Source: Myxococcales bacterium (GTDB lineage Bacteria > Myxococcota_A > Polyangia > Fen-1088). From it: a DNA stretch of 64,000 nt. Both the position numbers and the translations under genes were made by a program. Under the pieces are notes generated by a model. That model ran no database searches. It was not told the DNA's origin and saw nothing but the letters and a program-made list of their open reading frames with translations. Where the stretch lies: positions 19,574-83,573 of the forward strand of contig JANXXE010000218.1 of the NCBI GenBank assembly GCA_025350815.1, given 5' to 3'. Each line of letters starts with the position of its first letter. Within the stretch, counting starts at the first letter, position 1. Positions 1-26,367 of this stretch are shown here, one piece after another.

Positions 1-485
1 TTTTCCCGGTGCGCGAGCTGCTGGACGCCTTCCGCCGGTTTCAGCCCGAGATCCTTGCGGCCGCGACCGCGATCGACACCATCTTGCGCGCATCGCCCGA
101 CAAGCTGGCCACGGCCGAACAGGCCTACGCCGCAGGCCCCCACGTTTCCGTTGACCACGCCATCATGGAGCCAGCCGCGGCGGCGAACCTATGCGCGGTC
201 ATCCCGGTCGATCTCAAGCGCATCGACGCGGGAAATCTGGATTCACTGGGCGCGCTGTTCCCGGCGGACGCCCAGGGCAACACCGCTTCGGGCCCGGCGC
301 TATTCCTGGATTCACAAGGCTGTTTCTCGACGACCAAGGGCCCCCTCGTGGCCGTTCTGGGACTGCAAAACGTGGTGGTGACGGTGGAGAATGACGTGGT
401 GCTGGTCTGCCACCGCGACCGCGCCGGGGACGTGCGTCCCGTCCTGGCCGCCCTCAAGACACGTTCGCGCGGGGATTTGCTGTGA
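1..485 (+). CDS. mannose-1-phosphate guanylyltransferase, short type (5'-truncated at window edge)
   Basis: Frame 3 is open from nt 3 to the stop at 483-485. The translation contains the SVDHAIMEP ... LDSLGALF ... VVLVCHRDRAGDVRPV stretch characteristic of the ManC/CpsB nucleotidyltransferase domain. It ends without a cupin (PMI) domain. Confidence 0.6.
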   Translation, partial: FPVRELLDAFRRFQPEILAAATAIDTILRASPDKLATAEQAYAAGPHVSVDHAIMEPAAAANLCAVIPVDLKRIDAGNLDSLGALFPADAQGNTASGPALFLDSQGCFSTTKGPLVAVLGLQNVVVTVENDVVLVCHRDRAGDVRPVLAALKTRSRGDLL

Positions 486-492
486 GTGTCGG

Positions 493-1188
493 GTGACGCC
501 CCCATCCCTCGCCTACACGCACGTCGTGTTCGACTTTGACGGAACCTTGGTCGATTCGCTGCGCACAAAGGTGTCGAACGCGGGCGAGTTATTCGCCGAA
601 CGCTACGGCGCCGACCGGGACCTGGTGGCGCGGCGCTATTACTTTCATTCCGGGATTGCACGAAGGCTGCTGTTCGAACGCATCGCCGAGGATGTCCTTG
701 CGCGCGGCTTGACCGAGACCGAATACCAGGATCTGGATCAGGTGTTTACACGTCTGAATCTGGAACGGGCCGGCGCCGCGCCGCCCTGGCCCGCGGTTCC
801 TGCGGTGCTTGCACAGCTGGCTGCGTCGGGGGTCACGATGGCGGTGTCGAGTTCAGCGCCCGAGCATGACCTGGCACCGCGCGTGCGGGCCTCAGGCCTC
901 GGGGACTTTTTCGGCCCTGTCCTTGCCTCGCGCGATGGGTTTCGCAAGGGGCCTGATCATGTCGCGTCGCTGGAAAAGCTGTGGAAAGTCGAACGCGGAC
1001 ACTTTCTCAGCGTCGGTGACGAACTGGCTGACGCGCGGCTTGCGGCTGCGGCGCGTGTTGATTGCGCGCTGGTCAGCCACACCATCACGCCCGCCGAGGC
1101 CGCCACTGGACCGTCGGAGGCGCGACCCCGCTTCATCTTGACGACCTTCGATGAACTGCTGACAATCGTCGGTTCACAAAACCCATGA
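493..1188 (+). CDS. HAD-superfamily hydrolase/phosphatase
   Basis: GTG start at 493 sits just after the upstream stop. The N-terminal VVFDFDGTLVDS (DxDGT) motif and a downstream SVGD...D motif place it in the HAD superfamily. The 391 ATG listed in the ORF track overlaps the upstream gene and is unlikely to be the start. Confidence 0.7.
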   Translation: MTPPSLAYTHVVFDFDGTLVDSLRTKVSNAGELFAERYGADRDLVARRYYFHSGIARRLLFERIAEDVLARGLTETEYQDLDQVFTRLNLERAGAAPPWPAVPAVLAQLAASGVTMAVSSSAPEHDLAPRVRASGLGDFFGPVLASRDGFRKGPDHVASLEKLWKVERGHFLSVGDELADARLAAAARVDCALVSHTITPAEAATGPSEARPRFILTTFDELLTIVGSQNP

Positions 1189-2633
1189 CCGCCACCACCG
1201 ACAGACCGATCGTCATCGCCGCGGGAACCGGTTTCGTGGTGCGGAACTACCTGCTTGGCAAGTGCCTGACCAAGCTGCAGGAACGGCACCCCGTCGTGGC
1301 GCTGTCACCCATGGCGGACAATCCCGGATTTCGCCAGGTCATGAACGAACGTGGCGTGCGCGTCGAGCCCCTGCCCGCGCCGCACGTCCACAAGTCCTGG
1401 GGCCGCGTCCGGCGCTGGCGCGGCCGCTTGCACGCGGGCTGGGTGGACAACGAAACCTGGGCATTGAAGTATTCCGCCGAAAAATATCTGGCTGCGAAAC
1501 CTGACTACAGCCCCACGCGCTTCGAAGCGTTCTACCGCGATCTGGCGCAGTGGACGGCCGCGCGCCTCGCCAGCCCGCGGACGTTGACGCTGATCGATCG
1601 CGCGGAGGATCACTATGCGCTGCAGACCGCGGACGCCGCGCAGTACCGCAAGCTGTTCGGCACCCTGCGCCCCAAGCTGGTGTTTTCACCCGCGCCGCTC
1701 ATTTCCGAGGAATGGCTGCCTATACAGGTCGCGCGGGAAATGGGCATCCCGACGGTGCTGTCCGTCTTGTCGTGGGACAATCTGTCCAGCAAGGGCCGCA
1801 TGCCCCTGCCTTGCTCGGCTTTTCTGGTCTGGAGCGAACACATGCGCCAGGAACTTCTTGCGTACTACCCCGATGTGCGCGCGGACCAGATCACGATCAC
1901 TGGCCCGCCGCAGTTCGATTTCTATTTCGATTCCGCCTTCCAGCAGACGCGCGCCGCCTTCTTCGCCTCACTGGGGCTGGATCCCGGGCGACCACTCATC
2001 GTCTACGCCGGGGTGACGCCCGGCCTGATGCCCGACGAGCCCCGGGTCGTCGAGGGCTTGCTGGCGGCCATCCGCAGCGGGGCTGTACCGGGGAACCCGC
2101 AGCTGCACCTGCGTTTGCACCCGAAGGACGGTGGCGAGCGGTATCAGGAGCTGCGTTCACGCTGGCCGGAGGTGACCTTCACCATTCCGGGACAAAGAAG
2201 CGGCGGCCAGCTGAAGAACTGGGCACCCGACAACGAAGATCTGCGGCTACTCGTGAACACCGTTCGTCACGGCGACGTTCATATCAACGTGGCGTCCACC
2301 ATGACCGTCGATGCGGCGATCATGGGGCGACCCGTGGTCAACGTGCGCTTCGACTTTCGTCCCCCGACAGCGCCGCGATCCTGGGGACTGTGTATTTACG
2401 ATCAAACCCACTACCGCCCGTTGCTCAAGACGAACGGCATGCGCGTTGCCGAAAGCCCCGAAGAACTGGTCCAACACGTGCGCACCTATTTGCAAAACCC
2501 GACGCTGGATGAGGCCGGCCGCCGCAAGATTGTCGAGCTGGTCTGCGGCAAGGTAGACGGCCACTCAGGCGAGCGAGTGGCCACAAGACTCGACGAGCTG
2601 TGCGGTGCGAGCCCCGCGCCGGGCCGGTCGTGA
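1185..2633 (+). CDS. GT-B-like polysaccharide biosynthesis protein, paralog A (family uncertain; TagF/Capsule_synth-like motifs)
   Basis: 482-aa ORF with ATGA overlap onto the HAD stop. Motifs SWDNLSSKG, GVTPGL, LRLHPKD and HGDVHINVASTM are all shared with the next gene. The protein looks soluble and Rossmann-like. The coding call is strong; the function call is weak. Confidence 0.5.
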   Translation: MTATTDRPIVIAAGTGFVVRNYLLGKCLTKLQERHPVVALSPMADNPGFRQVMNERGVRVEPLPAPHVHKSWGRVRRWRGRLHAGWVDNETWALKYSAEKYLAAKPDYSPTRFEAFYRDLAQWTAARLASPRTLTLIDRAEDHYALQTADAAQYRKLFGTLRPKLVFSPAPLISEEWLPIQVAREMGIPTVLSVLSWDNLSSKGRMPLPCSAFLVWSEHMRQELLAYYPDVRADQITITGPPQFDFYFDSAFQQTRAAFFASLGLDPGRPLIVYAGVTPGLMPDEPRVVEGLLAAIRSGAVPGNPQLHLRLHPKDGGERYQELRSRWPEVTFTIPGQRSGGQLKNWAPDNEDLRLLVNTVRHGDVHINVASTMTVDAAIMGRPVVNVRFDFRPPTAPRSWGLCIYDQTHYRPLLKTNGMRVAESPEELVQHVRTYLQNPTLDEAGRRKIVELVCGKVDGHSGERVATRLDELCGASPAPGRS

Positions 2634-4045
2634 CGGACAGAGTTCGACCGGGCGACAGAAGACCCCGGGTCGTGATGCTGGGCGCCGCCGGTTGGTCGGT
2701 GCGGAACTACCTTGCCAATCCTGGCTTCCAGGCTTTCTTGCGCGACAACGATGTAACGTTTTGGTCCCCCGCGTGGCAGGAACTGGCCAAACTGGACGCG
2801 TTCAAGGGGCGCGCGTCCTTTGCCCCCCTGTCCGTGTGGCAGCCGCAGGGCTGGCGCCGCCGGGGCCTGTCGTTCGTGCATGCCTATTACGGGTACAAGC
2901 AACAGAGTCGGAATCTGCTGCAGAAGCTTGAGATCTCTGCGGTGTCGGCCCGCCGAGCGGGCCTGTTGAAGGGGCTGTACGCGCGCGGCGTGCACCGCGG
3001 CGCCTGGCTTGGCAGCCAGGTTCTTCCGGTCTCAACGGTGGAAGCGGTCGAGAGGTTTCTGGCGGCCCACGCGCCCGGCCTGGTCGCCGAGTACGAGTCG
3101 CGTCTGCGGGCCAGCCAGCCCGACCTGATGTTTTCGACTACCCCGCAGGCCAATCACATGGAATGGCCGGCCGCCCTCGCCGCCAGACGCCTTGGGATCC
3201 CCGTCGTCGCCCAGATCTCATCCTGGGACAATCTCAGCTCGAAGGGGCACTTCGCCATCGAGTACCAGCGCTACCTCGCCTGGTCGGACGTGATGGTGCG
3301 TGACCTAATGCGGGATTTCGCAGTCGCCCGCGAGGACATCCAGGTCACGGGGGCACCGGGTTTTGATTTCTATTTCCAGCCGGAATTTCAGGAAAGCCGT
3401 GAGGCTTTTGCCGCGCGCCAGGGACTGGACCCCGCCCGGCCGATCATTCTTTACGCCGCCGTGACGCCCGGTCTGTTTCCGAACGAGCCGCACATGGTGG
3501 CCTTGCTACTGGACGCGATCCGAGCCGGCGACCTGCCCCGCGAGGCCCAGGTCCTGCTGCGCCTTCACCCCAAGGATCCCGGGACGCGCTGGCAGTCCCT
3601 TGACGGCCGTTACCCCGAGCTTCGCGCCTGCGTGCCCAACACCGCCGGCGATCTGCGCCAGTGGATTCCGGACGAAAGCATCATCCGCGACCAGGTGTCG
3701 TGCGTTCGGCACGGCGACGTGCATGTGAATGCCGCATCGACCATGATCATCGACGCCTCGATTCTCGACAGACCGGTGGTCAGCGTGGCGTTCGATGCCG
3801 TCGAACCCACCTTCTCGAAATACATTCGGGGCTATTACGACTACCCGCACCTGGTTCCGGTGGTCAGGGCGGGTGCCTCTCGTCTCGTGTCGACGGGGCC
3901 TGAGCTCATCGGCGAAATCGACAACTATCTACGCGATCCATCGCGTGATCGCGCGGGACGGAGGGCGATCGTCACCATGCAGACAGGGGATTGCGACGGC
4001 CAGGCGGCCGCGCGCGTCGCTGCGGCGCTGACGTCGATGCTATGA
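2600..4045 (+). CDS. GT-B-like polysaccharide biosynthesis protein, paralog B (tandem duplicate of 1185..2633)
   Basis: It has the same motif set (VRNYL, SWDNLSSKG, GVTPGLFPNEP, LRLHPKDPG, HGDVHVNAASTM) and matches the upstream gene along its whole length. The true start may be the GTG at 2630, giving a GTGA overlap, rather than the ATG at 2600. Confidence 0.5.
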   Translation: MRCEPRAGPVVTDRVRPGDRRPRVVMLGAAGWSVRNYLANPGFQAFLRDNDVTFWSPAWQELAKLDAFKGRASFAPLSVWQPQGWRRRGLSFVHAYYGYKQQSRNLLQKLEISAVSARRAGLLKGLYARGVHRGAWLGSQVLPVSTVEAVERFLAAHAPGLVAEYESRLRASQPDLMFSTTPQANHMEWPAALAARRLGIPVVAQISSWDNLSSKGHFAIEYQRYLAWSDVMVRDLMRDFAVAREDIQVTGAPGFDFYFQPEFQESREAFAARQGLDPARPIILYAAVTPGLFPNEPHMVALLLDAIRAGDLPREAQVLLRLHPKDPGTRWQSLDGRYPELRACVPNTAGDLRQWIPDESIIRDQVSCVRHGDVHVNAASTMIIDASILDRPVVSVAFDAVEPTFSKYIRGYYDYPHLVPVVRAGASRLVSTGPELIGEIDNYLRDPSRDRAGRRAIVTMQTGDCDGQAAARVAAALTSML

Positions 4046-4047
4046 AG

Positions 4048-5487
4048 TTACCTGACCGGAAGGTGCCGACGCCCCACGGACAGCGCCAGCCGGTCAGCGG
4101 GACTGGCCGGGCTCGGGGCCTTCTTGGGCGCAGCACCTGACAGCCCCCTTTGGGCCGCAACGAATCCCGCCAGCCCGATGCCGAACCACTGAATGTACGT
4201 GAATGCGACCGCGACCTGTGCCGCGGCCACCGATGCGAGGGTCAGGCCCAGCGCCAACCTGCCGAGGGGCCCCTGCTCGCGGCGAACCTGCCAAGCTCTC
4301 CTGATCGCGGCTATCAGGAAATACGCGAAGGCGAAGGCGGCGATAAAACCACCTTCGGCGGCGGTGCGCAGAAGCACGTTGTGGGCGCCCATTGCCTTTC
4401 CGCGCCATTTTGTGCCTAGATTTGCCTTCTCTGCAAAATTGTCAAACTCGGTGGCATAGGCACCCGCGCCGACACCCGTCATCGGCCTGTCGGTGACCAT
4501 GGCCCAAGCCACCTTCCACAAATCCAGCCGGCCCGTGAAGGCCGCGTCGGGGTCGTCTGCCACGCCGACTGTCCGCTCGATACCCCTTTCGATGTCGGCG
4601 TCGCTTAGGCCCTTGGCGCTGTAGAGTATTGCGGCGATGAAGGCCCCGGCAATTGCCAGCCTGACGAGGATTTGCTTCCCGCCTCCGCCGACGGCCATAC
4701 AAAGAACCACGATCAGCAGGGCCACGACGCTGCCGCGACAGACAGTCATGGTCGTTCCGATAGACAGCGCGACCGCAGAGCCTAGGTAAAGGAATCGCGG
4801 CCGCCCACGCGACGTGAGGCCCAGATACAGTGCCACCCCAGCCGGAACGGCGATGTGTATCGACGTATCGCCCCCAGCGAGCGTGGACTTCATGTTGCCC
4901 AGTCGCCCCGCATAGGACTCGGGAAGCAGCGCAACCAGGCAGGCCAACATGGCCATGCCACCCATCACCATTGCAGACAGGCCACGCCGCAGGGACGGCA
5001 GGTCGCGGAACAGGCACACTGGGCCCAGGTACGCCACCACGAGGCCCAGCATCGCGACGCTCGATGTGAAGCCCTCCCAGCGGTCAATTGACCACGTGAC
5101 ACTGACCATCATCCAAGCTGTCAGACCGAGAATCACTGCGACGGTCGAGTCCATCTTGCGCAACTGGGTGCGCAACCTGCCCATGTTGGTCAGCATTAGC
5201 AGCGCCACACCGTAAAAGAATGCGAGATATCTGGTGCTGCCCCACACGCGGATGAGAGGATCAATGGGAAGGGCCAGGAACAAGATGGCCTTGGCGCCTT
5301 CAGAATTGCGCGACAGAAGGTTCGCGAAGAAGACCAGATAGAGCGCCGCGGTCGCCCCCAATCCCACGTTGCTCCGCGACAGCCCGACCCCCTGTAAGAC
5401 CACGGCGGTGCCAAGAATCAGCAGAAAGGCCACCAACGCGCTGACCGGCGGTGTCTCGCTGGTGGCCGCGGGGCCAGCTTTTGCCAT
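4048..5487 (-). CDS. O-antigen ligase / Wzy-type polymerase family membrane protein
   Basis: About ten hydrophobic segments with a periplasmic loop. The Wzy_C-like signature ...GAHNVLLRTAAEGGFIAAFAF... is present. Confidence 0.65.
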   Translation of the reverse strand: MAKAGPAATSETPPVSALVAFLLILGTAVVLQGVGLSRSNVGLGATAALYLVFFANLLSRNSEGAKAILFLALPIDPLIRVWGSTRYLAFFYGVALLMLTNMGRLRTQLRKMDSTVAVILGLTAWMMVSVTWSIDRWEGFTSSVAMLGLVVAYLGPVCLFRDLPSLRRGLSAMVMGGMAMLACLVALLPESYAGRLGNMKSTLAGGDTSIHIAVPAGVALYLGLTSRGRPRFLYLGSAVALSIGTTMTVCRGSVVALLIVVLCMAVGGGGKQILVRLAIAGAFIAAILYSAKGLSDADIERGIERTVGVADDPDAAFTGRLDLWKVAWAMVTDRPMTGVGAGAYATEFDNFAEKANLGTKWRGKAMGAHNVLLRTAAEGGFIAAFAFAYFLIAAIRRAWQVRREQGPLGRLALGLTLASVAAAQVAVAFTYIQWFGIGLAGFVAAQRGLSGAAPKKAPSPASPADRLALSVGRRHLPVR

Positions 5488-6249
5488 TTAGGCCAATGCC
5501 CCCCGGCAAAGAACCATCAGTCCGCATCCGCCAACAGTATGGGCGGCAGCGTCGGGCGAAAGGAGAAACGCGCGGCGCCGCAGCTTGTCCACGACGCGCC
5601 CACGAGCGGTCGTCGACGGCCTCCTCCCCTCGGCCGACGAGGAGGTGTATTCCCACCCCAGGATCTCGAGGCCACAACCCCGGAGTAGGCGAAGCGCGGA
5701 CCAGCGGTGGTAGAAGTGCAGGTGCCCCACTTCTACGCGTTGCTGTTCCCGAAGGCCACGAAGCCGGGCCCAGACGCTTTCCTCCACGGGAATATGAAGG
5801 GCGATGAAGCGCGCCTTTTTGACGGCTTCGCGCAAAAAATCGTCGGGACGGACCAGGTGCTCGATCACGTCAAATAGCATCAACAGATCCGCCGCCGGGG
5901 CATCGACCAAAGTCCCCTGTATGACCCGCAACGAAGGGAACAGTCGCCCCGCAACTTCAACAGCGTCCCCAGCGGGATCTACACCCACCGCGTCCACGAT
6001 CAGGCCATGGCCAGCCAGGATCCGGATCGCTGCACTCAGAGCGGCGCCGCTGCCACAGCCGAGATCTACCAGACGGATCGCTGACGATGACCGTCCGAGA
6101 CACGCCAGAATCGTCCGCTCGTGTTCGAGAGCAACCCCGAGCTTTTCCGCTTTCCAGGGACCATCCTCTGCGTGCCAGGTCCCTCCCGTGTTGTCGAGAT
6201 AGGTCCCGTCGACGTATCCCTGCGGCAGGCAGTCGTCCACCGGCGGCAT
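5488..6249 (-). CDS. class I SAM-dependent methyltransferase
   Basis: Motif I VDLGCGSG and a DVIEH motif are present. The gene abuts the Wzy gene. Confidence 0.65.
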   Translation of the reverse strand: MPPVDDCLPQGYVDGTYLDNTGGTWHAEDGPWKAEKLGVALEHERTILACLGRSSSAIRLVDLGCGSGAALSAAIRILAGHGLIVDAVGVDPAGDAVEVAGRLFPSLRVIQGTLVDAPAADLLMLFDVIEHLVRPDDFLREAVKKARFIALHIPVEESVWARLRGLREQQRVEVGHLHFYHRWSALRLLRGCGLEILGWEYTSSSAEGRRPSTTARGRVVDKLRRRAFLLSPDAAAHTVGGCGLMVLCRGALA

Positions 6250-6259
6250 TGTGCCATCG

Positions 6260-8641
6260 TCAGGGTTTCCGCGCCAGCGACTGAAGTTGTTTCCGGGCCC
6301 TTACGACAAGGTCCGGCCGGCCGACCTCTTCTGCGTACTGGGCCAGGGCCTCGAGCGGTGACGGCCACCGGGGGTCAAGGTCGCTCGCTGTCTGAAATGC
6401 CAGAAGTGCGGCCGCGGTCTCCCCCATACCCTTCCAGATCCATGCCGCGCTAAGCTGGACCTGCGCCGCCTGCTCGGCCGTGGCCACGAGCCGCGCCCGT
6501 TCCAGGGCCTCTCGGGTTGTCTTTCTGTCTCGGGCGCCGCCAGCAGCCTGGGCGAGACCCAACCAATATCGGAGCTCGCCGGGCTTGGCGTCGGTCGCCT
6601 TGCCGATCTCCGTAACGGCGTCCTTGAAGCGCTGTTCACCAAGCGCCACACGCCCCCGCAGGAAGGCCGCTTCCGTCGGATTCACGGCGCCGAGCTCGTC
6701 CGCGACGCTTGCCAGGTCGTGCAGGTTCCCGGTGGCCTGGGCTCGCTGGGACAGGCGCATCAACGCCCTTTCGTTGCGCGGTTGCACTTCGAGCAACGCC
6801 CGATCGGCATCGTCCGCCAGGGAGCGCTTGCCCATCACGTCGAGGACCCGAACCAGCGCCTCCAGGCGTTCCCCCGGGTGGTCCGTCCCCACCGTCAGCC
6901 GGCTAAGTAGGTCGATGCGCGGATAAGAACGGACTATTTCTTGGATAATTTCATCCGGCTGCTCGGCGATTGTCGGCGCGCAGTCAAGCGCCAGCCGATA
7001 CTCGACCAGTGCCTGCTGGTGGTGTCCGGTCGCCCGGAACCACCGCGCGGTAAGCCGATGCGCTTCGAAGGAACGGGGATACAGGGTCAGGACGCGATTG
7101 ATCCAAGGTAAGGGTCGCCCGAGGGGCCGGTCACCGGCCATCAGACCGGCTTCCCGTTCGGCCGCCAGCAAGGGCAAAAAGTAGTCCGACGGATGATCCC
7201 GCAGTACCTGCTGCATCGTGCTGGTGATCCGATCGGGATCGTCCGAGCCCAGGGCCTGGCGCACATGCGCCTCCGCGGAAGGCATCTGTCTGCCCACGCC
7301 CAGGGCGAATCCAACCACGCCGATGGCCACAGACACCGCAATTAGGGCGCGCGGCATGCGGACGCCCGCGCTGGCATCACGCCGCGCGCGAGTGGCGAGG
7401 AGAGCGAGGGCGGGGATCGCGACACCTAGCACTTCGAGATTGAAGTCGAACAGGTTATGGAGAAACAGTGCCAGCATCCCACTGGCAACCGCCCAGTCGA
7501 TGGCACTGCCACGGCGAGCGAACAGGGCGCGCAGGCCATAAAGCCACCCGAGGACGAACAAGCCACCGACGATGAGACCGTAGTCCAGGACCAGCTGTAG
7601 CGGAACGTTCTCGGCATGCGTGAACGTGCGCATCATGGCCAGACGCTGATAGCGGGTATAGGCGAAGGGGAACGCCCCGCGGCCCCCGCCCACCAACGGA
7701 AAATCCGCCACGAACTGCCCCGCGGGACGCCAGATGTCGACTTTCACGGTACTGCGATCCGCAAACTCGTCGATGAAGAACCCGTTCCAGAAAATCCCCA
7801 TCAACAGCAAGGTCCCGATCAGCGCGAAGGGAACGACACTGGGGGCAACCCTCTTGTCGAGCATGCGGACCGCAAGGGGCAGCACGATCGCCACGATCAC
7901 CGCCACGGTACCGGCACGCGATCGAGCCAGCAGCCCGGCGGTCAGAATCAAGACTGTGGCCGCCGCCCACAACGCCCGCATTCTGGCGTCTCGGCTCTCC
8001 AGCGTCAGGCCCACGGCGGCAGCGCCGGTCAGCGCGAGAAATCCCGCCTGGTGATTCCCGTTGATGAAAGGACCCGCGACCTGGGTCGCACCGTGGGTCG
8101 AAAACAGGCCGTACAGGGTGTCGCTGGCGCCCGCCGCCAGGTGAAAAAGACCGACCAACGCCACACAAACGCCGGCCGCCGCCACGATCTTCAGGACCCG
8201 CTGGCGCGAACGTGCCGCGACCAAGTCACGGGCATTCTGATAGGCAAGCAGGGCAATTGCCAGCTTGGCCGCCTCAAGCCATGTGGCGGGCTGGTCCAGG
8301 CTGATGCTCATCCAGTCTGATCGCTGGCCAACCCCCAGGGGGCGCAAGGCAGCGCTTTGTGTCTCCCATGACGCGGGACTAATCAGGCGAAGCAAGCCGG
8401 GCGGCAGTGGCAACGCCTGAAAAACGGTGAACAAGCAAAGCGCGAAAAGTGCGCCCGCCAGGAGATCGAGGCCCGCCCGTTCGGACCGAGGAACCAGGTA
8501 GCGAGAGCCTGCGGTCAGCATCACGACCAACCCAACCGCGGCAATCACGGGGATATGCACCGTCCCCGCGAGCAACGGCACGGCGATGATGGTGCCGCCG
8601 ATCAGGAAGTATCGAATGGTCGAAAACGGAAGCGACATCAC
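6260..8641 (-). CDS. O-antigen ligase (Wzy_C) domain fused to C-terminal TPR-repeat domain
   Basis: The N-terminal ~430 aa are polytopic with the FTHAENVPLQLVLDYGLIVGG Wzy_C motif. The C-terminal ~350 aa are TPR-like helical repeats. Confidence 0.65.
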   Translation of the reverse strand: MMSLPFSTIRYFLIGGTIIAVPLLAGTVHIPVIAAVGLVVMLTAGSRYLVPRSERAGLDLLAGALFALCLFTVFQALPLPPGLLRLISPASWETQSAALRPLGVGQRSDWMSISLDQPATWLEAAKLAIALLAYQNARDLVAARSRQRVLKIVAAAGVCVALVGLFHLAAGASDTLYGLFSTHGATQVAGPFINGNHQAGFLALTGAAAVGLTLESRDARMRALWAAATVLILTAGLLARSRAGTVAVIVAIVLPLAVRMLDKRVAPSVVPFALIGTLLLMGIFWNGFFIDEFADRSTVKVDIWRPAGQFVADFPLVGGGRGAFPFAYTRYQRLAMMRTFTHAENVPLQLVLDYGLIVGGLFVLGWLYGLRALFARRGSAIDWAVASGMLALFLHNLFDFNLEVLGVAIPALALLATRARRDASAGVRMPRALIAVSVAIGVVGFALGVGRQMPSAEAHVRQALGSDDPDRITSTMQQVLRDHPSDYFLPLLAAEREAGLMAGDRPLGRPLPWINRVLTLYPRSFEAHRLTARWFRATGHHQQALVEYRLALDCAPTIAEQPDEIIQEIVRSYPRIDLLSRLTVGTDHPGERLEALVRVLDVMGKRSLADDADRALLEVQPRNERALMRLSQRAQATGNLHDLASVADELGAVNPTEAAFLRGRVALGEQRFKDAVTEIGKATDAKPGELRYWLGLAQAAGGARDRKTTREALERARLVATAEQAAQVQLSAAWIWKGMGETAAALLAFQTASDLDPRWPSPLEALAQYAEEVGRPDLVVRARKQLQSLARKP

Positions 8642-8695
8642 CTGACCACGCGTGCACCAACCCCAGACGTTGCGGGCGCCGCACCCGCGCGATCG

Positions 8696-10936: not shown

Positions 10937-11047
10937 TCAGCCTCCCTGGCATCTTGGTCTATATCACAGGTTGCAGGCCCTGACTAAATGCGGCGTCGTA
11001 GATTTCGGCCCCGGGTGGGGCCTTCAGACCTCGAAGAGGCGGGCTGG

Positions 11048-12073: not shown

Positions 12074-12098
12074 GGCGCGGTCCTGAAGCTGGGCGGAG

Positions 12099-13780: not shown

Positions 13781-13882
13781 CGAGTTCCTCCCGCCTTGAC
13801 GGCCCCCTGCCCATACTACGATCCCGTGCCGCGGGGCAAGGCGCCGCGTCGACGAAATATGCTAAAAGGCGCTACGCTACCG

Positions 13883-15768: not shown

Positions 15769-15793
15769 CACAAACAAAGGATTTGAAAGCGTG

Positions 15794-17877: not shown

Positions 17878-17885
17878 CCCGCGGA

Positions 17886-19797: not shown

Positions 19798-21005
19798 CCG
19801 TCCCGTTCTTTCGACCTTCGATTACTGAACTAGAAATCGAAGAGGTGCTTGCCAGCCTGCGCTCTGGCTGGCTGACGACCGGCCCCCGCGTAAAAGAGTT
19901 CGAGCGCCGCTTTGCCGAGACCGTCGGGGCCAAACACGCGATCGCATTGAATTCCTGCACGGCGGCCTTGCATCTGGCGCTTGAAGCGGTGGGGGTGGGG
20001 CGCGGCGACGGCGTGCTCGTACCGACGATGACCTTCGCCGCCACCGCCGAGGTCGTGCGCTATTTCGACGCCGTGCCCATCTTCGTCGATTGCGACCCCG
20101 TCACCTTGTGCCCCGATCCCACTTCCATCCGCGCGGCCCTTGAGGCCCTGAACGCTGGCCGGACCTGGCCCGGCGTCCCGCCCGGCACAAAGCCTCCCCG
20201 CGTTTTGGTGACCATGCACTACGGCGGCCTGGTCGGGGCGATGGGTGAATACCGCCGCCTGGCGGACGATTTCAACCTGCAGCTGATCGAGGATGCCGCC
20301 CACACCATGCCGGCCGCTTTTCGGGCCGACGCAACGGCGCCCTGGGAAGCGGTCGGTGGCGCCAGCCTGGTCACGTGTTTTTCCTTCTACGCGAACAAGT
20401 GCATCACGACGGGCGAAGGCGGCATGGCCACCACCAATGACGATGCGGTGGCGGCGCGCATGCGCTTGATGTCCCTGCACGGCATGGATCGCGACGCCTG
20501 GAAGCGCTACACCGATCAGGGCTCGTGGTACTACGAGGTCGTCGCACCCGGCTTCAAGTACAACATGACCGATGTGGCGGCGGCCCTGGGTCTGGCCCAG
20601 CTTGGGCGCCATCAGACCTTGTGGGCCGAGCGCAGACAGGTCGCCGGCCGACTGACCGCCGCCCTTGCCGACCTTCCGCTCGAACTACCGTTCGAGCCGC
20701 CCGACCGACAGCACTCGTGGCACCTGTACTCCGTCAAGCTCAGATTGAACGAGCTGCGCATCGGCCGCGATCAGTTCCTCGATGCGCTGAAGGCCAGGGG
20801 CATCGCCCACTCTGTGCACTGGCAGCCCCTGCACATGATGCCCTACTACCGCGAGCGCTACGCCTTGCGCGCCGAGGATTTTCCCGTCGCCGCATCCCTG
20901 TGGCCGCGGCTTGCATCGCTGCCCATCTTCGCCGGCATGACAACCGACGAACTGGCCGAGGTGACATCGACCGTGGCAGCGTTACTGCGCGCCAACCTGC
21001 GCTGA
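19794..21005 (+). CDS. DegT/DnrJ/EryC1/StrS family aminotransferase (no. 2)
   Basis: ATGA overlap with the upstream gene. DegT-like over its full length (FRPSITELEIEEV...; FYANKCITTGEGG). Confidence 0.8.
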   Translation: MTVPFFRPSITELEIEEVLASLRSGWLTTGPRVKEFERRFAETVGAKHAIALNSCTAALHLALEAVGVGRGDGVLVPTMTFAATAEVVRYFDAVPIFVDCDPVTLCPDPTSIRAALEALNAGRTWPGVPPGTKPPRVLVTMHYGGLVGAMGEYRRLADDFNLQLIEDAAHTMPAAFRADATAPWEAVGGASLVTCFSFYANKCITTGEGGMATTNDDAVAARMRLMSLHGMDRDAWKRYTDQGSWYYEVVAPGFKYNMTDVAAALGLAQLGRHQTLWAERRQVAGRLTAALADLPLELPFEPPDRQHSWHLYSVKLRLNELRIGRDQFLDALKARGIAHSVHWQPLHMMPYYRERYALRAEDFPVAASLWPRLASLPIFAGMTTDELAEVTSTVAALLRANLR

Positions 21006-22091
21006 AGCAAGGCGCCTGACCGTCGCGATGATCCGCTCGGCCGCTTTGCCGTCCCACAACTCGGGGATTCCGCCCTTCTTCCAGGCCCCGGCGAAGACTC
21101 GCTCCAGTGCCGGCGCGATGGCGGCGGGGTTGGTGCCGATGATTTCGTTGGTGCCGACCAGTGCCGTCTCCGGCCGTTCCGTGTTGTCTCGCAAGGTCAG
21201 ACACGGCACACCGAGGTACGTCGTTTCTTCCTGAATGCCGCCCGAATCCGTCAGCACCGCGCGCGCGTTCTTGACCAGGTACATGAACTCGAAATACCCC
21301 ATCGGCTCGACCTGGTGAATGTTCGACCAACCCGGCATCTGCGCCAGGGCCTTGCGCGTGCGCGGATGCACCGGAAAGATCACCGGCGCCCCCCGGACGG
21401 CGGCCGACACTTCATCGAGCAACCTCCGCAGCGTAACCGGGACGTCCACATTCGCCGGCCGGTGCAACGTGACGACGGCGTAGCCTCCAGCCGCGAGCCC
21501 CAGGTCGCCCCACACGGCCGGAGGCACAAGCCGCGGCAGGCTGAACACCAGACTGTCGATCATCGTGTTGCCCACGAAGTGGATGCGCTCCTCGGACGTA
21601 CCCGAGCGCCGAAGCTGTTCGTTCGCGTGCCGCGAGGTCGTGAAAAACTGGTCGGCCAGCGCATCGGTGACCATCCGGTTGATCTCCTCCGGCATGGTCA
21701 TGTCGAACGATCGAATACCGGCCTCGACGTGGGCCACGGCGGTGTTCATCTTCTTGGCGACGATGGTGCAGGCCATCGTGGACGTCACATCGCCGACAAC
21801 CAGCAGCAGATCGCACGGATTCGCCGCCAGGTCCTTCTCGAACCGCACCATGATCTGCGCGGTCTGCTCGGCCTGGCTGCCCGATCCCACCTCAAGATTC
21901 GCCTGCGGCGGCGGAATGCCCAGTTGGTCGAAGAACTGTCCGCTCATGTTGGCGTCGTAGTGCTGCCCGGTGTGCACCAGCCTCACCGAAATGTCTGCGC
22001 CATCGCTCGCATTGACGCGCCGGATCTCCCGCATGAGCGGAGCGATCTTCATGAAGTTCGGCCGGGCGCCGGCCACCAGGGTCAGCCGCAT
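20982..22091 (-). CDS. UDP-N-acetylglucosamine 2-epimerase (WecB/NeuC family)
   Basis: LVAGARPNFMKIAPL ... HTGQHYD ... HVEAGIRSFD ... DSGGIQEE are canonical Epimerase_2 motifs. The gene converges on DegT no. 2 with a 24-nt overlap. Confidence 0.85.
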   Translation of the reverse strand: MRLTLVAGARPNFMKIAPLMREIRRVNASDGADISVRLVHTGQHYDANMSGQFFDQLGIPPPQANLEVGSGSQAEQTAQIMVRFEKDLAANPCDLLLVVGDVTSTMACTIVAKKMNTAVAHVEAGIRSFDMTMPEEINRMVTDALADQFFTTSRHANEQLRRSGTSEERIHFVGNTMIDSLVFSLPRLVPPAVWGDLGLAAGGYAVVTLHRPANVDVPVTLRRLLDEVSAAVRGAPVIFPVHPRTRKALAQMPGWSNIHQVEPMGYFEFMYLVKNARAVLTDSGGIQEETTYLGVPCLTLRDNTERPETALVGTNEIIGTNPAAIAPALERVFAGAWKKGGIPELWDGKAAERIIATVRRLASAQVGAQ

Positions 22092-22114
22092 CGCAGTTCC
22101 TGTTCGACCGGCAG

Positions 22115-22711
22115 CTAGAACATGCGTTCGTCGACGACCAGGACATCACCTGGGAAGATCGCGACGTTGGGTGCCCGGCCCTCGCTAATGTCAGCGACGG
22201 GATAGGATCGGCTGACCACCGATCCCTTGTCCTCGCGCCTCAGCGTGACCTTGTTCTTCGCCGCGATTCCAGTGAATCCGCCCGCGGCCGCAATGGCATC
22301 GATGATGGTCATGTTCGAGAAGTACACCACCGCACCGGGTTTCAGCACCTGCCCCAGCACCGAGACCTTGCGGCTGTTCCATTCATGCACGGTCACGGTG
22401 ACCTGAGGATTCTTGATGAATCCGTCCTTTAATTTCTCCGTGATCATCGCCTGAACCTCGCCGCTGGTCATGCCCACCACCTTGATGCGACCTATCAACG
22501 GGTAGTCCACCATACCGTCGCCCGCGATCCGGTACAGCCCAGTCAGATCGCCCTCAAGGAAGACCCGGGTCTCAAAAACGTCGTCCACGCCCAGTCGCTC
22601 ATCGGGCGCCAGCGTCATGACCTCCGCGGGTACCGGCGCGGGGATCTGCCGCGAGGCGCATCCCACCTGCGCGATAAACAGCACGACGGGCCAGGCCCTC
22701 AAGCGAGTCAT
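22115..22711 (-). CDS. polysaccharide export protein (Wza/GumB-like, Poly_export + SLBB)
   Basis: A lipoprotein-like signal (…IAQVGCAS) is followed by ...GDGMVDYPLIGRIKVVGMTSGEVQAMITEKL... and a PGDVLVV motif typical of Wza-family exporters. The start is taken at the internal Met at 22711. Confidence 0.7.
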   Translation of the reverse strand: MTRLRAWPVVLFIAQVGCASRQIPAPVPAEVMTLAPDERLGVDDVFETRVFLEGDLTGLYRIAGDGMVDYPLIGRIKVVGMTSGEVQAMITEKLKDGFIKNPQVTVTVHEWNSRKVSVLGQVLKPGAVVYFSNMTIIDAIAAAGGFTGIAAKNKVTLRREDKGSVVSRSYPVADISEGRAPNVAIFPGDVLVVDERMF

Positions 22712-22774
22712 TGCCCCGGATTGTAGTCCGTCCAGCCAGTCGTCGCAATGTCGCGGCAATGTCGCGGGGCTCCT

Positions 22775-23497
22775 CTATTGGGGGTCTGAGTCTCCACGAC
22801 GGGGCGGCTTCAGGCGCGACAGCAAGACCTCCGCCAGGACAAAGTCGACTTCCTCGTCGATATCCACGGCCCGATCCCGCGGGACGACCACCCCGGCGAC
22901 ACGTTCGCCATACAAAGAATTCCGGTCGAGGACTGCGCGCGCCGTCGCGTAGACAGAGCCCGAGCGCACGTAGGCGGGGGCAAGATCCTGGCCTCGCGCG
23001 CCCTCAGTCTCGGCGGCCTGTGCGAAATAGGGCTCCAGCCAGTTTCCCCGCAACCTCTTCAGCTTCGCCGGGTGCACGGGGCCAACCGGCACAATGGTGA
23101 CCGCGGAGTGGGCCCCCGCCGCCACGGCCTCCAGACACGAGTCGATGTCCGCCGAGCTAACCAGGGGGTTGGTGGCCTGCACAATGGCCGTGGCGTCGAA
23201 GGGTCCCTCGCCTGCGGCCTCCAGCGTCCTGACCGCGTGCCGAACGGCGTCGATGCTGGGGCTGTCGTCGCGGGCCAGTTCCGGCGGACGCGCGAGCGCC
23301 AGGCGTGGGTCAATCGCCCGCACGATCGCCAGGACCTCGGGGTCCTCGCTTGAGACCACACAACGGGTCGCCAGGCGCGCGCCCATGGCCGCGTCGACAG
23401 CGTAGCTCAGCAGGGGTCGCCCGAGCAGTAACCGAACATTCTTTCGCGGCAAGCGCTTGGATCCACCCCGCGCCGGGATAACGACTAGGGAGGTCAC
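22775..23497 (-). CDS. acylneuraminate cytidylyltransferase family protein (second NeuA-like paralog)
   Basis: LVVIPARGGSKRLPRKNVRLLLGRPLLSYAV is the CTP_transf_3 motif. It is distinct from the 12099..12824 copy. Confidence 0.75.
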   Translation of the reverse strand: MTSLVVIPARGGSKRLPRKNVRLLLGRPLLSYAVDAAMGARLATRCVVSSEDPEVLAIVRAIDPRLALARPPELARDDSPSIDAVRHAVRTLEAAGEGPFDATAIVQATNPLVSSADIDSCLEAVAAGAHSAVTIVPVGPVHPAKLKRLRGNWLEPYFAQAAETEGARGQDLAPAYVRSGSVYATARAVLDRNSLYGERVAGVVVPRDRAVDIDEEVDFVLAEVLLSRLKPPRRGDSDPQ

Positions 23498-23612
23498 GAA
23501 ACGAATCCTTTTGGCGGTGGCTCAGGCGCTTCGGTACGCACCAAGATGGCGAATTATACGCGAACCGTCCCCAGGTCCCGAGTCCAATCTGTTATCGTTC
23601 CGTCGGTCCGAT

Positions 23613-24275
23613 ATGAATGTCCTGGTCCTGGCGGCTCACCCGGATGACGAAACCCTGGGTGCTGGCGGTGCGATGGCCCACGCCATTGAGCGCGGCGACC
23701 AGGTGCACGTAATCGTCGCCTGCGGCTCCGCACGTGTGGACGTTGTCGATGATGGTCGATTCGCAGCCCAGAAAGCCTCAGAACTTGAGACCGCCATGCG
23801 CTCACTCGGTGTCACCTTCGAGGCGCTGGGCTTGCCCGACCAAAAGCTAGACGTCGTTCCCCTGGTCGATCTTGCTCGCGCCATCGAAAACACCATGGCT
23901 AGATTCCGCCCGGCTACGGTGCTTACGCACTTCGCTGGAGACGTAAACCAGGACCACCGGCGCGTGGCGGAGGCGACGCTAATCGCTTGTCGATGCGTTC
24001 CAGGCTCCCCCGTTCGCAGGCTAGCCTCGTACTTCGTGCCGTCCAGCACCGATTGGGGGGACCCGCAAGTCGGTTTCGTTCCCAACGCATTCGAAATCCT
24101 CGAAGAATCCCATGTCTCGGCCAAGCTGGCGGCGATGCGCTGCTATGCTTCCGAACTGAGGCCGGCGCCGCATCCCCGTTCGGAAAGGGGGATTCGAGCA
24201 GCGTTGGAGCATTTCGGCTCGCGTGTCGGCGCCGCCTATGCCGAACCTTTTGTGATCCTTCGCGAGTTGCTCTGA
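23613..24275 (+). CDS. PIG-L/LmbE family N-acetylglucosaminyl deacetylase
   Basis: MNVLVLAAHPDDETLGAGG contains the PIG-L AHPDDE motif. The ATG at 23613 sits inside the longer track ORF. Confidence 0.75.
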   Translation: MNVLVLAAHPDDETLGAGGAMAHAIERGDQVHVIVACGSARVDVVDDGRFAAQKASELETAMRSLGVTFEALGLPDQKLDVVPLVDLARAIENTMARFRPATVLTHFAGDVNQDHRRVAEATLIACRCVPGSPVRRLASYFVPSSTDWGDPQVGFVPNAFEILEESHVSAKLAAMRCYASELRPAPHPRSERGIRAALEHFGSRVGAAYAEPFVILRELL

Positions 24276-24390
24276 GGCCTGCAATCCCCACCGCCGACAC
24301 GGAAGCATTGGACAGACAAGGGCCGGACGTGGAACGATCGAAGGCGATGCTACAGTCTGTCGAACGGCGCCGACGGGATCCTCCCGGCGC

Positions 24391-26367
24391 ATGAGCTCCC
24401 GGTTCTACTGGAAGTCAGCGCAGCTGGCCGTCGACGCCCTGGTCTGCGTCATGGCGTTCCTGGCCGCATACCTGATTCGTTTCGAGGGCATTTTGTCGGC
24501 CCCGACGCTCAAGCAGATGGCGCTGCTGATGCCCTACCTGGTGTTCGCGCGCCTGCTGTGCAATCAGATCCTGGGCGTCTATCGGATCGCCTGGCGTTAC
24601 GTGGGTCTGCGCGACCTGCGCACCTTCGTGATCGCTACCTCTCCAGCGACCGCGTTCTTTCTGATCCTACGTTTCGGCGTGGCCCCAAACACGGTTCTTT
24701 TTGGTCTTTGGTTGGACGTCTTTCGCATTCCCCTGTCGGTGGTCGCTCTTGAAGGCATGCTTTTCTTCCTGGGAACCGTCGGGGCACGGGTCTTGCGGCG
24801 CATCACGCTGGACGTTCAGCGAGCTAAGGTCAGTAGTGGCCCGAAGAAGGTCCAGCAAAAGCCGATTCTTCTTATCGGCGCCGGGCGAGCCGGCGTCATC
24901 GTCGCGCGGGAAATTCGTTCGCGGCCCGACATGGGCCTCAAGATCGTGGGTTTCATCGACGACGACCCGATGAAATTGGGACAGATTATCGACGGTCTTC
25001 AGGTCCTCGGACCGACCGCCGACTTGCCGCGACTGGCACGCCTGCACCACCTTGACCACGTGGTCATCTCAATCGCCAGCATTCCAGGTGTGGACATGCG
25101 CCGGATTCTCGCAGTGTGCGAGTCAATACCCATTCGTCCCCAGGTGGTGCCGGGTATTTATGAGTTGGTGGAAGGTAGCGTCAGCATCAACCGTATACGC
25201 GACGTGGAGTTCGAGGATCTGCTGGGCCGCTCCCCGGTGAACCTGGACACGGAGGGTGTCGCCGCGTTCTTGGGCGGTAGCCGCATCGTCGTGACCGGTG
25301 CTGGCGGGTCGATTGGCTCTGAGATGTGCCGCCAGGTGTGTCGATTCGGCCCCGCGTCGCTTATTCTCGTCGAGCGCTACGAGAACAATCTTTTCGAAAT
25401 CGAACGGGAGCTGCGCTCAAGCTACCCCAACTTGCAGATCATTCCCTGCGTTGCCGATATCACCGATGCCCCACGAATGGCGTCGATATTCGAGACGCAG
25501 GCGCCCCAGGTGGTGATCCACGCGGCCGCCCACAAACACGTTCCGATGATGGAAAGTAATCCGTCCGAAGCCGTCAAGAACAATGTCCGCGGCACCCGAA
25601 TGCTGGCCGAGTTGGCGGACCGACACAAGGCCGCCGTGTTCGTCATGATTTCGACGGACAAGGCCGTCCGGCCGAAGTCCGTGATGGGCGCGTCCAAGCG
25701 CATGGCCGAACTATACGTGCAGTCGCTGGCTCAGAACTCAGGCACGCGCTTTATGACGGTCCGTTTTGGCAACGTTCTCGGAAGCGCAGGCAGTGTGATT
25801 CCTATTTTCAAGAAGCAGATCGCCGCCGGCGGCCCCATCACCGTCACACACCCCGAGATGAAGCGCTACTTTATGACCATTCCGGAGGCCGCACAGTTGG
25901 TGTTGCAAGCGGCCTCCATGGGTTCAGGGGGGGAGATCTATGTGCTCGACATGGGCGAGCCCGTGAAGATCGTCTCGCTGGCTGAGGAACTAATCCGCCT
26001 GAGCGGCCTCAAGCCTTACGACGACATCGAGATTACTTTTACGGGCGTTCGGCCGGGCGAGAAACTGTTCGAGGAGATTTCCCTGGATGACGAGAATCTC
26101 ACCAAGACCCAGCACGCGAAGATCTACGTAGGCAAGAACAGACCTCTCGCGGCCGAGGGCGTGGCGGAGAAGGTACGTCTGTGCGAACAGCTCATCGACG
26201 AGCCCGATGCGACGACGGTCCGAGCGACCCTGATAGACCTGGTACTGGAAGACCGAGCCGAAGGAGAGCAGCGGACAGCTCAGGTGGGTGAAGATCAGGA
26301 AGGCGCGTCAGGCTCCAGCGATCGAGGCTTGACGACAGCGCTTCGAAAGCCCGAGCTCCTGCACTAG
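24391..26367 (+). CDS. membrane-anchored UDP-GlcNAc 4,6-dehydratase (PglF/CapD/WbpM/FlaA1 family)
   Basis: Four N-terminal TM helices, then two Rossmann motifs (ILLIGAGRAGVIV and IVVTGAGGSIGSE) and the CapD core. Confidence 0.85.
   Translation: MSSRFYWKSAQLAVDALVCVMAFLAAYLIRFEGILSAPTLKQMALLMPYLVFARLLCNQILGVYRIAWRYVGLRDLRTFVIATSPATAFFLILRFGVAPNTVLFGLWLDVFRIPLSVVALEGMLFFLGTVGARVLRRITLDVQRAKVSSGPKKVQQKPILLIGAGRAGVIVAREIRSRPDMGLKIVGFIDDDPMKLGQIIDGLQVLGPTADLPRLARLHHLDHVVISIASIPGVDMRRILAVCESIPIRPQVVPGIYELVEGSVSINRIRDVEFEDLLGRSPVNLDTEGVAAFLGGSRIVVTGAGGSIGSEMCRQVCRFGPASLILVERYENNLFEIERELRSSYPNLQIIPCVADITDAPRMASIFETQAPQVVIHAAAHKHVPMMESNPSEAVKNNVRGTRMLAELADRHKAAVFVMISTDKAVRPKSVMGASKRMAELYVQSLAQNSGTRFMTVRFGNVLGSAGSVIPIFKKQIAAGGPITVTHPEMKRYFMTIPEAAQLVLQAASMGSGGEIYVLDMGEPVKIVSLAEELIRLSGLKPYDDIEITFTGVRPGEKLFEEISLDDENLTKTQHAKIYVGKNRPLAAEGVAEKVRLCEQLIDEPDATTVRATLIDLVLEDRAEGEQRTAQVGEDQEGASGSSDRGLTTALRKPELLH

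Follow-up and report, generated by a model that had tools for sequence, protein, structure and literature searches.

A probable BPS-like polysaccharide locus of a myxobacterium, with two Wzy_C proteins and a flippase most likely encoded elsewhere in the genome

In Myxococcus xanthus, the BPS (biosurfactant polysaccharide) pathway produces a polymer rich in N-acetylmannosaminuronic acid (ManNAcA) and uses a PCP-2A Wzc copolymerase with a fused kinase (PMC7310880). Its components include WzcB (MXAN_1025), WzxB (MXAN_1035), WzaB (MXAN_1915), WzpB and WzyB (MXAN_1052), the Wzy protein assigned to the pathway (PMC7484181, PMC7310880). WzxB lies 17 locus-tag numbers from WzyB (PMC7484181), each of the three Wzx/Wzy pathways of this species is encoded at two or more separate loci, and the distances reported are 25.7 kb (a Wzx), 223 kb (a Wzy) and 1 Mb (a Wza) (PMC7310880). 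Composite translocons that pair a protein of the OPX type (outer-membrane polysaccharide export) with a beta-barrel have also been described for myxobacteria (PMC9601211). Here we analyse a polysaccharide locus in a 64-kb stretch of contig JANXXE010000218.1 from a Myxococcales bacterium (the window), which carries two Wzy_C proteins and no recognisable Wzx flippase. A first-pass annotation of the window had remarked that the locus does not fit a textbook Wzx/Wzy cassette. This is true, but split cassettes are the documented norm in Myxococcota. We consider it probable that the locus encodes a Wzx/Wzy-type pathway closest to M. xanthus BPS, with its flippase elsewhere in the genome and the longer of its two Wzy_C proteins acting as polymerase.

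The longer Wzy_C protein (6260..8641, minus strand; 793 aa) combines a Wzy_C domain (Pfam, 50.9 bits, E 1.9e-13) with C-terminal TPR repeats. Both it and the shorter Wzy_C protein (4048..5487, minus strand; 479 aa, canonical topology; 59.6 bits, E 3.9e-16) lie exactly where the first-pass annotation had placed them. A single-sequence scan of GTDB species-representative contigs with the long protein gave no match. A profile built from a six-sequence alignment (A3) and searched against GTDB species genomes recovered 228 relatives, nearly all of them from Myxococcota, and the best 80 of the 228 include Myxococcus, Corallococcus, Archangium and Hyalangium. In M. xanthus AM003 (L070; loci are designated by L numbers), the homologue is an 881-aa open reading frame (ORF) that is 33% identical over query residues 71-611 (tblastn, E 1e-34). 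Published deletion primers map precisely around this ORF, identifying it as MXAN_1052, WzyB. The homology spans the membrane domain and reaches the C-terminal domain, and WzyB also bears a TPR-like C-terminal domain. Judged by homology, therefore, the long protein belongs to the WzyB family. The term TPR, as applied to WzyB-family polymerases, is absent from PMC7484181, PMC7310880 and PMC12819527.

An AF2 model of the long protein (pLDDT 88, pTM 0.81) contains 13 membrane helices followed by the TPR repeats. Positively charged loops at residues 376-379 and 417-430 orient the 13th helix by the positive-inside rule, so the N-terminus would be inside and the C-terminus outside; by this prediction the 340-aa TPR domain faces the periplasm, as does the catalytic loop. 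Fold searches with the full-length model returned TPR proteins only. With the membrane domain, the top match was WaaL (7tpg_B, E 3.5e-6, TM-score 0.53/0.61), followed by RodA and FtsW. The matches confirm the fold class but not the reaction. Since the whole Wzy_C superfamily shares the WaaL fold, the WaaL match does not show ligase function, and as no solved Wzy structure is among the matches, the fold search cannot separate a polymerase from a ligase. The sequence profile of the long protein matched, in the catalytic-loop region, a single solved relative, 9rmk (E 1.4e-9), which was deposited as 'Oligosaccharyltransferase'; we take it, as a guess, to be a PglL-type enzyme, and a literature search for the code 9RMK gave nothing relevant.

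The absence of a MOP/Wzx flippase and of an ABC exporter, as reported in the first-pass annotation, was confirmed by several searches. Neither MOP/Wzx nor ABC-2/Wzt families had a Pfam match among the picked ORFs of the 64-kb window. The models Polysacc_synt, Polysacc_synt_3, MurJ and MatE found nothing in either the window or the 8.8 kb upstream of it, which is contained in L001, an identical Logan contig that brings the total covered to 72.8 kb; these searches concern the locus, not the genome. A six-frame search with a hidden Markov model (HMM) made from myxobacterial flippases did not find a flippase (best E 0.35), and a hydrophobic-ORF screen of the window gave no candidate. Two places where, according to the first-pass annotation, a flippase might yet appear were thus empty: there is no Wzx gene just upstream of the window, in the 8.8 kb of L001, and none of the window proteins scanned against Pfam scores as a MOP flippase. 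The only proteins in the window with many transmembrane (TM) segments are both Wzy_C proteins, a PglF-like dehydratase, SctV (at 40.6 kb) and an MFS transporter (at 45.7 kb). Furthermore, 25 genes cover positions 3-28440 with gaps of at most about 120 nt (refined starts), leaving no space for a hidden flippase. No ABC-2 permease or Wzt/KpsT/TagH ATPase was found in the locus (Pfam was negative for 1-37 kb), and the lone ABC ATPase ORF that a motif scan detected in the window (47934 to about 49020, minus strand) has no connection with the locus, being of the importer type and a neighbour of CysK.

Relatives of the long protein show that Wzx is only loosely linked to this family. In a survey of 85 loci with a long Wzy_C gene, covering up to 10 kb on each side, a Pfam-verified MOP/Wzx gene was present in 12, and Wzc was directly adjacent in about 20. 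In L009, Wzc and the long Wzy_C gene are separated by a MurJ-like MOP gene at exactly the place where the window has a spacer of 54 nt, and L004 and others carry a Polysacc_synt Wzx near the long Wzy_C gene. In M. xanthus AM003 itself, no flippase lies within 10 kb of the WzyB homologue. Taken together, the split M. xanthus pathways and the loose linkage of Wzx make a flippase encoded elsewhere the ordinary expectation. The first-pass annotation had offered three explanations for the missing gene, namely a flippase outside the window, a non-canonical role for one Wzy_C protein, or a different export route involving the tandem GT-B paralogs. The first is the best supported, and the flippase is most likely encoded elsewhere in the genome, although no such gene has been found. 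The puzzle of the missing flippase is therefore mostly accounted for by known myxobacterial biology.

A conserved protein of about 510-540 aa with about 14 TM segments and no Pfam match was seen in several of the related loci (L043 7547-9160, L052 6501-8114, L065-L067, L073, L076 and L079). Its gene (representative L067:7414-8949) adjoins, on the opposite strand, the gene for an 823-aa WzyB-like protein, after which comes that for a Wzc of 735 aa. The protein, which is absent from the window, might be a flippase that has diverged strongly, or else another GT-C enzyme.

The partners of the long protein resemble those of WzyB. Wzc (8696..10936, minus strand) is a PCP-2a copolymerase with a fused BY-kinase (Pfam Wzz, GNVR and AAA_31; TIGR01007 190 bits, over the 108-bit cut-off) and ends in a C-terminal tyrosine cluster, SYYRYDYYRTYGYSY. 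No Wzb phosphatase was seen in the locus. The Wza-type protein is a short OPX protein of 214 aa and a probable lipoprotein (22115..22759, minus strand; Pfam Poly_export and SLBB). Poly_export covers residues 52-124 and SLBB residues 131-209, with nothing beyond, so that the outer-membrane helix of E. coli Wza is missing. It is a class 3 (D1D2) OPX protein, a class of at most about 280 aa with no C-terminal outer-membrane helix, and matches the pepcterm_export, EpsE and EpsY models. Its predicted partner is a 444-aa outer-membrane beta-barrel (26386..27720, minus strand) with a signal peptide and the C-terminal residues GVTY. This protein is 27% identical (E 4e-31) to a BBP2_2 barrel encoded beside an OPX gene in L006 and matches an EpsL outer-membrane model weakly; the barrel fold is predicted from homology and sequence features.

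Beside this core, the locus carries a rare pair of additions, the shorter Wzy_C protein and two tandem GT-B genes. Only four representatives of the short protein were found at E<1e-30 among 1.84 billion, a word-indexed search returned essentially the protein itself, and a metagenome scan with its alignment added one further true relative, L092. Its gene adjoins the long Wzy_C+TPR gene in all five loci seen (the window, L002, L090, L091 and L092), with the tandem GT-B genes immediately beside it in four of them (they are absent from L002) and with ManC and HAD genes preceding the GT-B pair wherever the contig reaches that far. The two Wzy_C proteins are not recent paralogs. When the window is set against L002, identity is 82-85% for Wzc, NeuB, cytidylyltransferase, DegT and dehydrogenase, compared to 57% for the long and 38% for the short Wzy_C protein; L002 also has the short Wzy_C gene in inverted orientation and lacks the GT-B and methyltransferase genes. 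A pattern of this kind is that of a polysaccharide locus with a variable centre that is structure-specific. By these comparisons, the short Wzy_C protein and the GT-B pair make up a rare accessory module, and the short protein is a rare, fast-diverging extra enzyme. The suggestion in the first-pass annotation that one Wzy_C protein is non-canonical thus holds in part: the short protein is an unusual extra, while the long one, despite its appearance, is a member of the WzyB family.

In the window, the short Wzy_C and methyltransferase genes lie on the strand opposite to the GT-B genes, whereas L090, L091 and L092 have all three on one strand, with the short Wzy_C gene after the GT-B pair, which points to an inversion of this segment.

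The two GT-B proteins (1185..2633 and 2675..4045, both plus strand; the second start is taken from a Logan gene call) are 44.5% identical over 310 aa. They have no TM segment and share invariant R-x-H-P (HP) and SWDNLSSKG motifs. Genetic work in Tannerella shows that members of the BFO_1060 family are needed there for the attachment of derivatives of pseudaminic or legionaminic acid (Pse/Leg) to ManNAcA (PMC5420450). The corresponding model, NF046086, scores 57.9 and 53.2 bits with our pair against a cut-off of 200, so the proteins are related to this family but are not members of it. Pfam Glyphos_transf, the TagF family, gives 22.8 and 26.9 bits, just over its cut-off of 22.1. A CMP-sugar supply is encoded nearby, as the locus contains NeuB and two CTP_transf_3 genes, and the first GT-B protein is a candidate transferase for CMP-nonulosonic acid or another CMP/CDP donor. 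For the short Wzy_C protein, the best NCBIfam match is a 'putative O-glycosylation ligase' model (38 bits), and an H-N-x9-G motif follows a G-x-G-x-G loop. This motif resembles the WaaL motif H[NSQ]x9GxxG, a likeness that we treat as a lead only. Searches of the PDB with phmmer, using both Wzy_C proteins and the first GT-B protein, gave nothing useful.

The gene content, the homologies, the synteny and the lack of a flippase gene in 72.8 kb are observed; each enzymatic step of the BPS-like pathway, the site of the flippase and the part played by the TPR domain are inferred, as follows. The PglC-type transferase would prime undecaprenyl phosphate, and the two GT4 and two soluble GT-B enzymes would assemble the repeat unit in the cytoplasm, with the methyltransferase decorating it. 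A MOP-family flippase encoded elsewhere in the genome would then flip the lipid-linked unit, which the long Wzy_C+TPR protein, as WzyB homologue, and the Wzc copolymerase/tyrosine kinase would polymerise in the periplasm. The short OPX protein and the barrel at 26386-27720 would export the polymer. The TPR domain may dock the polymerase to Wzc, to the OPX protein or to the growing polymer and so couple polymerisation to export, an idea we hold tentatively. The short Wzy_C protein would be an accessory periplasmic transferase of undecaprenyl pyrophosphate-linked glycan tied to the GT-B pair, either as a second polymerase for the GT-B-modified unit or as a ligase. For its actual role, a second, glycan-specific polymerase or grafting enzyme is a good possibility that stops short of being probable; a ligase to a lipid or protein acceptor is less likely, and some other function slightly less likely again.

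Several observations weigh against the BPS-like pathway as drawn here. Identity to WzyB is only about 33%, and the polymerase role of WzyB itself rests on genetics, not biochemistry. The sequence match to 9rmk and the WaaL-like best fold make a ligase or O-glycosylation role possible for the long protein. The barrel gene lies 3.6 kb from the OPX gene and does not adjoin it. No flippase has been located for this organism, by searches that covered the locus and not the genome, and L002, L090 and L092 (12-16 kb each), the only other contigs of the two-Wzy_C clade long enough to be informative, are also without one, so the absence may be a feature of the clade and not an accident. Lastly, the GT-B matches to NF046086 are far under the cut-off, and the nonulosonic-acid set, described below, looks incomplete, with its NeuB and cytidylyltransferase matches under the equivalog cut-offs.

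Part of this evidence bears on a division of labour in which one Wzy_C protein polymerises and the other moves glycan from undecaprenyl pyrophosphate to an acceptor, again with the flippase elsewhere. The acceptor could be lipid A-core (WaaL-like), a protein (PglL-like) or another glycan, and the locus would then make a secreted polymer together with a glycoconjugate. We regard this arrangement as rather unlikely. That two non-paralogous Wzy_C proteins are kept as a pair in five loci agrees with it, but in L006 the long form is the sole Wzy_C protein in the 21 kb read, encoded between OPX and Wzc genes, and in the literature WzyB is the sole Wzy_C protein of the M. xanthus BPS cluster, with WaaL separate. 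These layouts suggest that the long form is a polymerase, and we propose it as the repeat-unit polymerase of this locus. The ligase-like matches (9rmk as the only profile match and WaaL as the best fold of the long protein, and the top NCBIfam model of the short one) are each weak, with the limit on the fold search noted above. The periplasmic TPR domain could bind protein acceptors, and the PglC-type primer, the PglF-like protein and the DegT genes recall protein-glycosylation loci. However, no other gene of the locus has diverged as much as that of the short protein, which also keeps company with the GT-B genes; this is more what one expects of a glycan-specific enzyme than of an acceptor-specific ligase.

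A bolder extension of the BPS-like pathway, which we consider quite doubtful, is a two-enzyme periplasmic assembly line in a small uncultured Myxococcota clade, making a dual-chain product. Here the WzyB-type TPR domain would act as a scaffold linking polymerisation to the AlgE-like barrel and short OPX protein, while the second Wzy_C protein would graft a chain or unit built by the GT-B enzymes, possibly containing nonulosonic acid, onto the main polymer. In its extreme form, the extra Wzy_C protein would also replace the missing Wzx. TPR proteins link polymerisation to the exporter in synthase-dependent systems.

It is very improbable that the clade lacks a dedicated MOP flippase altogether and that a core membrane protein, the extra Wzy_C being the candidate, flips the lipid-linked unit or couples its flipping. 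No flippase was found in the 72.8 kb here or in L002, L090 and L092, and the extra Wzy_C protein is confined to just these loci, but the related contigs are short and myxobacteria routinely split such clusters. The fold class of the extra Wzy_C protein also includes the SEDS proteins RodA and FtsW, which the membrane domain of the long protein returns after WaaL, and flipping of lipid II by FtsW in vitro has been reported, a claim that is contested. However, no member of the Wzy_C family is known to flip lipid-linked sugars, and relatives in the same polymerase family carry MOP genes. Finally, the proposal of the first-pass annotation that the GT-B paralogs belong to a different export route, in which they would polymerise the chain in the cytoplasm like TagF with export by, for example, an ABC transporter, is also highly improbable and found no support: despite their tandem duplication and marginal Glyphos_transf scores, they lack TM segments and resemble nonulosonic-acid transferases as well as TagB/F, their genes are absent from L002, which retains the whole Wzc/Wzy core, the locus is without an ABC transporter (the only ABC ATPase of the window being importer-type and 22 kb away), and the Wzc, OPX and barrel genes indicate a Wzy-type route.

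For the overall gene content, gene-like ORFs were chosen across the 64 kb by size and third-position GC and scanned against Pfam and NCBIfam. This choice was non-exhaustive, as the PglC-type transferase and ABC ATPase ORFs escaped the initial Pfam scans. G+C content of the window is about 65%. The first-pass annotation delimited the locus as 1-26367. The cluster is real, but it begins about 2.3 kb left of the window and, with the barrel gene, passes the right-hand limit to reach at least 27720. The left edge, at about -2336, is a gene in L001 for a 571-aa UDP-ManNAc-dehydrogenase-like protein (336 bits with an NDP-sugar dehydrogenase model; the best named NCBIfam model is UDP-ManNAc dehydrogenase), and left of it are housekeeping genes for a PilZ protein, a DEAD-box helicase and MoeA. 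This dehydrogenase gene (L001 6480-8195, about 2.3 to 0.6 kb left of the window start) encodes about 130 additional residues at the N-terminus, where CBS- and KpsF/GutQ-like models match weakly; such an extension is unusual for the enzyme family. In the related locus L008, the UDP-sugar dehydrogenase gene (9030-11786) is split by an intein (Intein_splicing, LAGLIDADG_3).

The genes listed in the first-pass annotation (ManC, HAD phosphatase, two GT4, PglC-type transferase, Wzc and Wza, the last in a short form) were all recovered by Pfam and NCBIfam matches and by synteny with L002. The dehydrogenase gene precedes ManC, a mannose-1-phosphate guanylyltransferase-type gene of 369 aa that starts about 620 nt left of the window according to the L001 map; its 3' end occupies 3..485 (plus strand; Pfam ManC_GMP_beta-helix; GMP_PMI 223 bits against a cut-off of 373). 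The HAD-superfamily phosphatase (493..1188, plus strand; Pfam Hydrolase and HAD_2) always adjoins ManC in this clade, and the pair is kept in L002, L090 and L092. The SAM-dependent methyltransferase (5488..6249, minus strand; Pfam Methyltransf_23) belongs to the variable part of the locus. One GT4 glycosyltransferase is encoded at 11048..12142 (minus strand; Pfam) and a second, WcaI-like one at 13745..15103 (plus strand; Pfam/NCBIfam). The start of the PglC-type small phosphoglycosyltransferase gene (15100..15768, plus strand; 222 aa), the putative priming enzyme, overlaps the stop codon of the latter; its product is 75% identical to that of an L002 gene annotated Bac_transf and scores 207 bits with TIGR03025 over the catalytic domain.

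Much of the sugar supply was missed by the first-pass annotation, which lacked NeuB, both cytidylyltransferases, the ManNAcA genes and the amino-sugar block, as well as the barrel. The first CMP-sugar synthetase-like cytidylyltransferase (12099..12824, minus strand; CTP_transf_3, 84 bits) is best matched by PseF (TIGR03584, 160 bits against a cut-off of 206), with KdsB models weaker, and the second (22775..23497, minus strand) is 39% identical to it and also has PseF as its best match, below the cut-off. Between the GT4 genes lies a NeuB-family nonulosonic-acid synthase (12821..13780, minus strand; Pfam NeuB, 159 bits), which at 319 aa is short and matches the NCBIfam NeuB and PseI models below their cut-offs. 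The amino-sugar block (15791..21005, all plus strand, from Pfam/NCBIfam matches) consists of a DegT aminotransferase (15791-16963), an SDR epimerase/dehydratase (16960-17877), WbqC (17885-18637), NTP_transf_5 (18637-19797) and a second DegT (19794-21005). It is followed by WecB, a non-hydrolysing UDP-GlcNAc 2-epimerase (20982..22091, minus strand; TIGR00236 287 bits, cut-off 210), which with the upstream dehydrogenase would yield UDP-ManNAcA. A PIG-L family de-N-acetylase (23457..24275, plus strand; true start probably 23517 or later) and a membrane-anchored PglF/WbpM-type UDP-GlcNAc 4,6-dehydratase (24391..26367, plus strand; Polysacc_synt_2 393 bits, with CoA_binding_3) complete the set. The PglF-like protein was also considered as a priming enzyme or transporter; this was rejected, its N-terminus being WbaP-like and the remainder a 4,6-dehydratase.

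No hydrolysing 2-epimerase or PseG was found in the locus, the only 2-epimerase scoring 287 bits as WecB compared to 63 bits with the NeuC model, so the nonulosonic-acid route is incomplete or unusual. Speculatively, it may begin from another substrate, such as a phosphorylated hexose acted on by the HAD phosphatase. From the sugar genes as a whole (NeuB, cytidylyltransferases, WecB, DegT, SDR, WbqC, NTP_transf_5, PIG-L and dehydratase), an acidic ManNAcA polysaccharide is predicted, and the product probably also contains mannose, an amino-deoxy sugar and a nonulosonic acid.

To the right of the locus, a 215-aa ORF (27793-28440) has no family match, and Glt-type gliding-motility genes follow (28566-37391, minus strand). 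These comprise a GltG-like gene with an AgmX/PglI tail (28566-29984), a 112-aa ORF and a GltE-like TPR protein (30353-31606), together with TPR proteins of 1188 and 787 aa that have YbgF- and GltC-like matches. The tail of the GltG-like protein is of the myxobacterial type (106 bits against a 40-bit cut-off), and with the relatives of the long Wzy_C protein nearly all in Myxococcota, both lines of homology identify the organism as a myxobacterium. Further right, SctV, a type III secretion export gate (40636-42942, plus strand; TIGR01399 782 bits, over the 692-bit cut-off), is flanked by Obg and an M16 peptidase, with no further secretion or flagellar genes seen nearby. A sulfur-assimilation cluster (47015-54782) contains CysK, the importer-type ABC ATPase (no permease gene was found beside it), an Rrf2 regulator, sirohaem synthesis genes and sulfite reductase. 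At 58531-63783, immediately after ProC, there is a third DegT aminotransferase; next come a 345-aa protein that matches no family, an ECF-type sigma factor, a protein with DUF4384 and one with a caspase domain (Peptidase_C14).

These results tie long Wzy_C+TPR proteins, which are generically annotated as O-antigen ligases, to the genetically studied WzyB. A missing Wzx in a myxobacterial locus gives no ground for proposing a new export route without the whole genome. Two features are new. One is a two-Wzy_C/tandem-GT-B variant, rare and conserved, of a BPS-like pathway for which nonulosonic-acid chemistry is predicted; the other is the TPR domain of the WzyB family, which has drawn little notice. 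This domain, large and probably periplasmic, is a candidate link between polymerase, copolymerase and class 3 OPX/barrel exporter. The short Wzy_C/GT-B module with the predicted nonulosonic-acid genes would, if the predictions are true, represent a new decoration route for myxobacterial polysaccharides.

Compared to known systems, the locus shares with the E. coli group 1 capsule cassette a priming transferase, glycosyltransferases, a Wzy_C protein, a Wzc kinase and an OPX protein, and differs in having no wzx, no Wzb seen, an OPX protein without the outer-membrane helix, and two Wzy_C proteins. The long Wzy_C protein resembles WaaL (7TPG) in the fold of its membrane domain and 9RMK in its catalytic-loop profile. 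Unlike WaaL, to which it has no sequence-level match, it has a 13th TM helix and the TPR domain, and the genes that accompany it encode Wzc and OPX proteins instead of LPS-core enzymes. The GT-B proteins resemble Tanf_01245/TFUB4_00887 of Tannerella forsythia (PMC5420450) as soluble, TagB-like GT-B enzymes of about 450-480 aa with an HP motif, encoded alongside NeuB-type, ManNAcA and methyltransferase genes; in contrast to these, they score 53-58 bits against the cut-off of 200, occur as tandem copies and lie in a Wzc/OPX locus, not a protein O-glycosylation locus.

The export proteins are most like the class 3 OPX/beta-barrel translocons EpsY-EpsX and WzaB-WzpB (PMC9601211, PMC9603273, PMC12819527), with a 214-aa Poly_export+SLBB OPX protein and a barrel homologue in the locus, although the barrel gene, which adjoins the OPX gene in those systems, is 3.6 kb away here. 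In comparison with M. xanthus BPS, the priming enzyme is of the PglC-type PHPT class instead of PNPT (MXAN_1043), no Wzx lies within 72.8 kb whereas WzxB is 17 locus-tag numbers from WzyB, and the short Wzy_C protein, tandem GT-B genes, NeuB with the cytidylyltransferases and the methyltransferase are additions, with identity to WzyB at about 33%. Nevertheless, the two systems have in common a long TPR-bearing Wzy_C protein, a fused-kinase PCP-2A Wzc, a short OPX protein with a separate barrel (predicted here), UDP-ManNAcA genes and a non-contiguous cluster.

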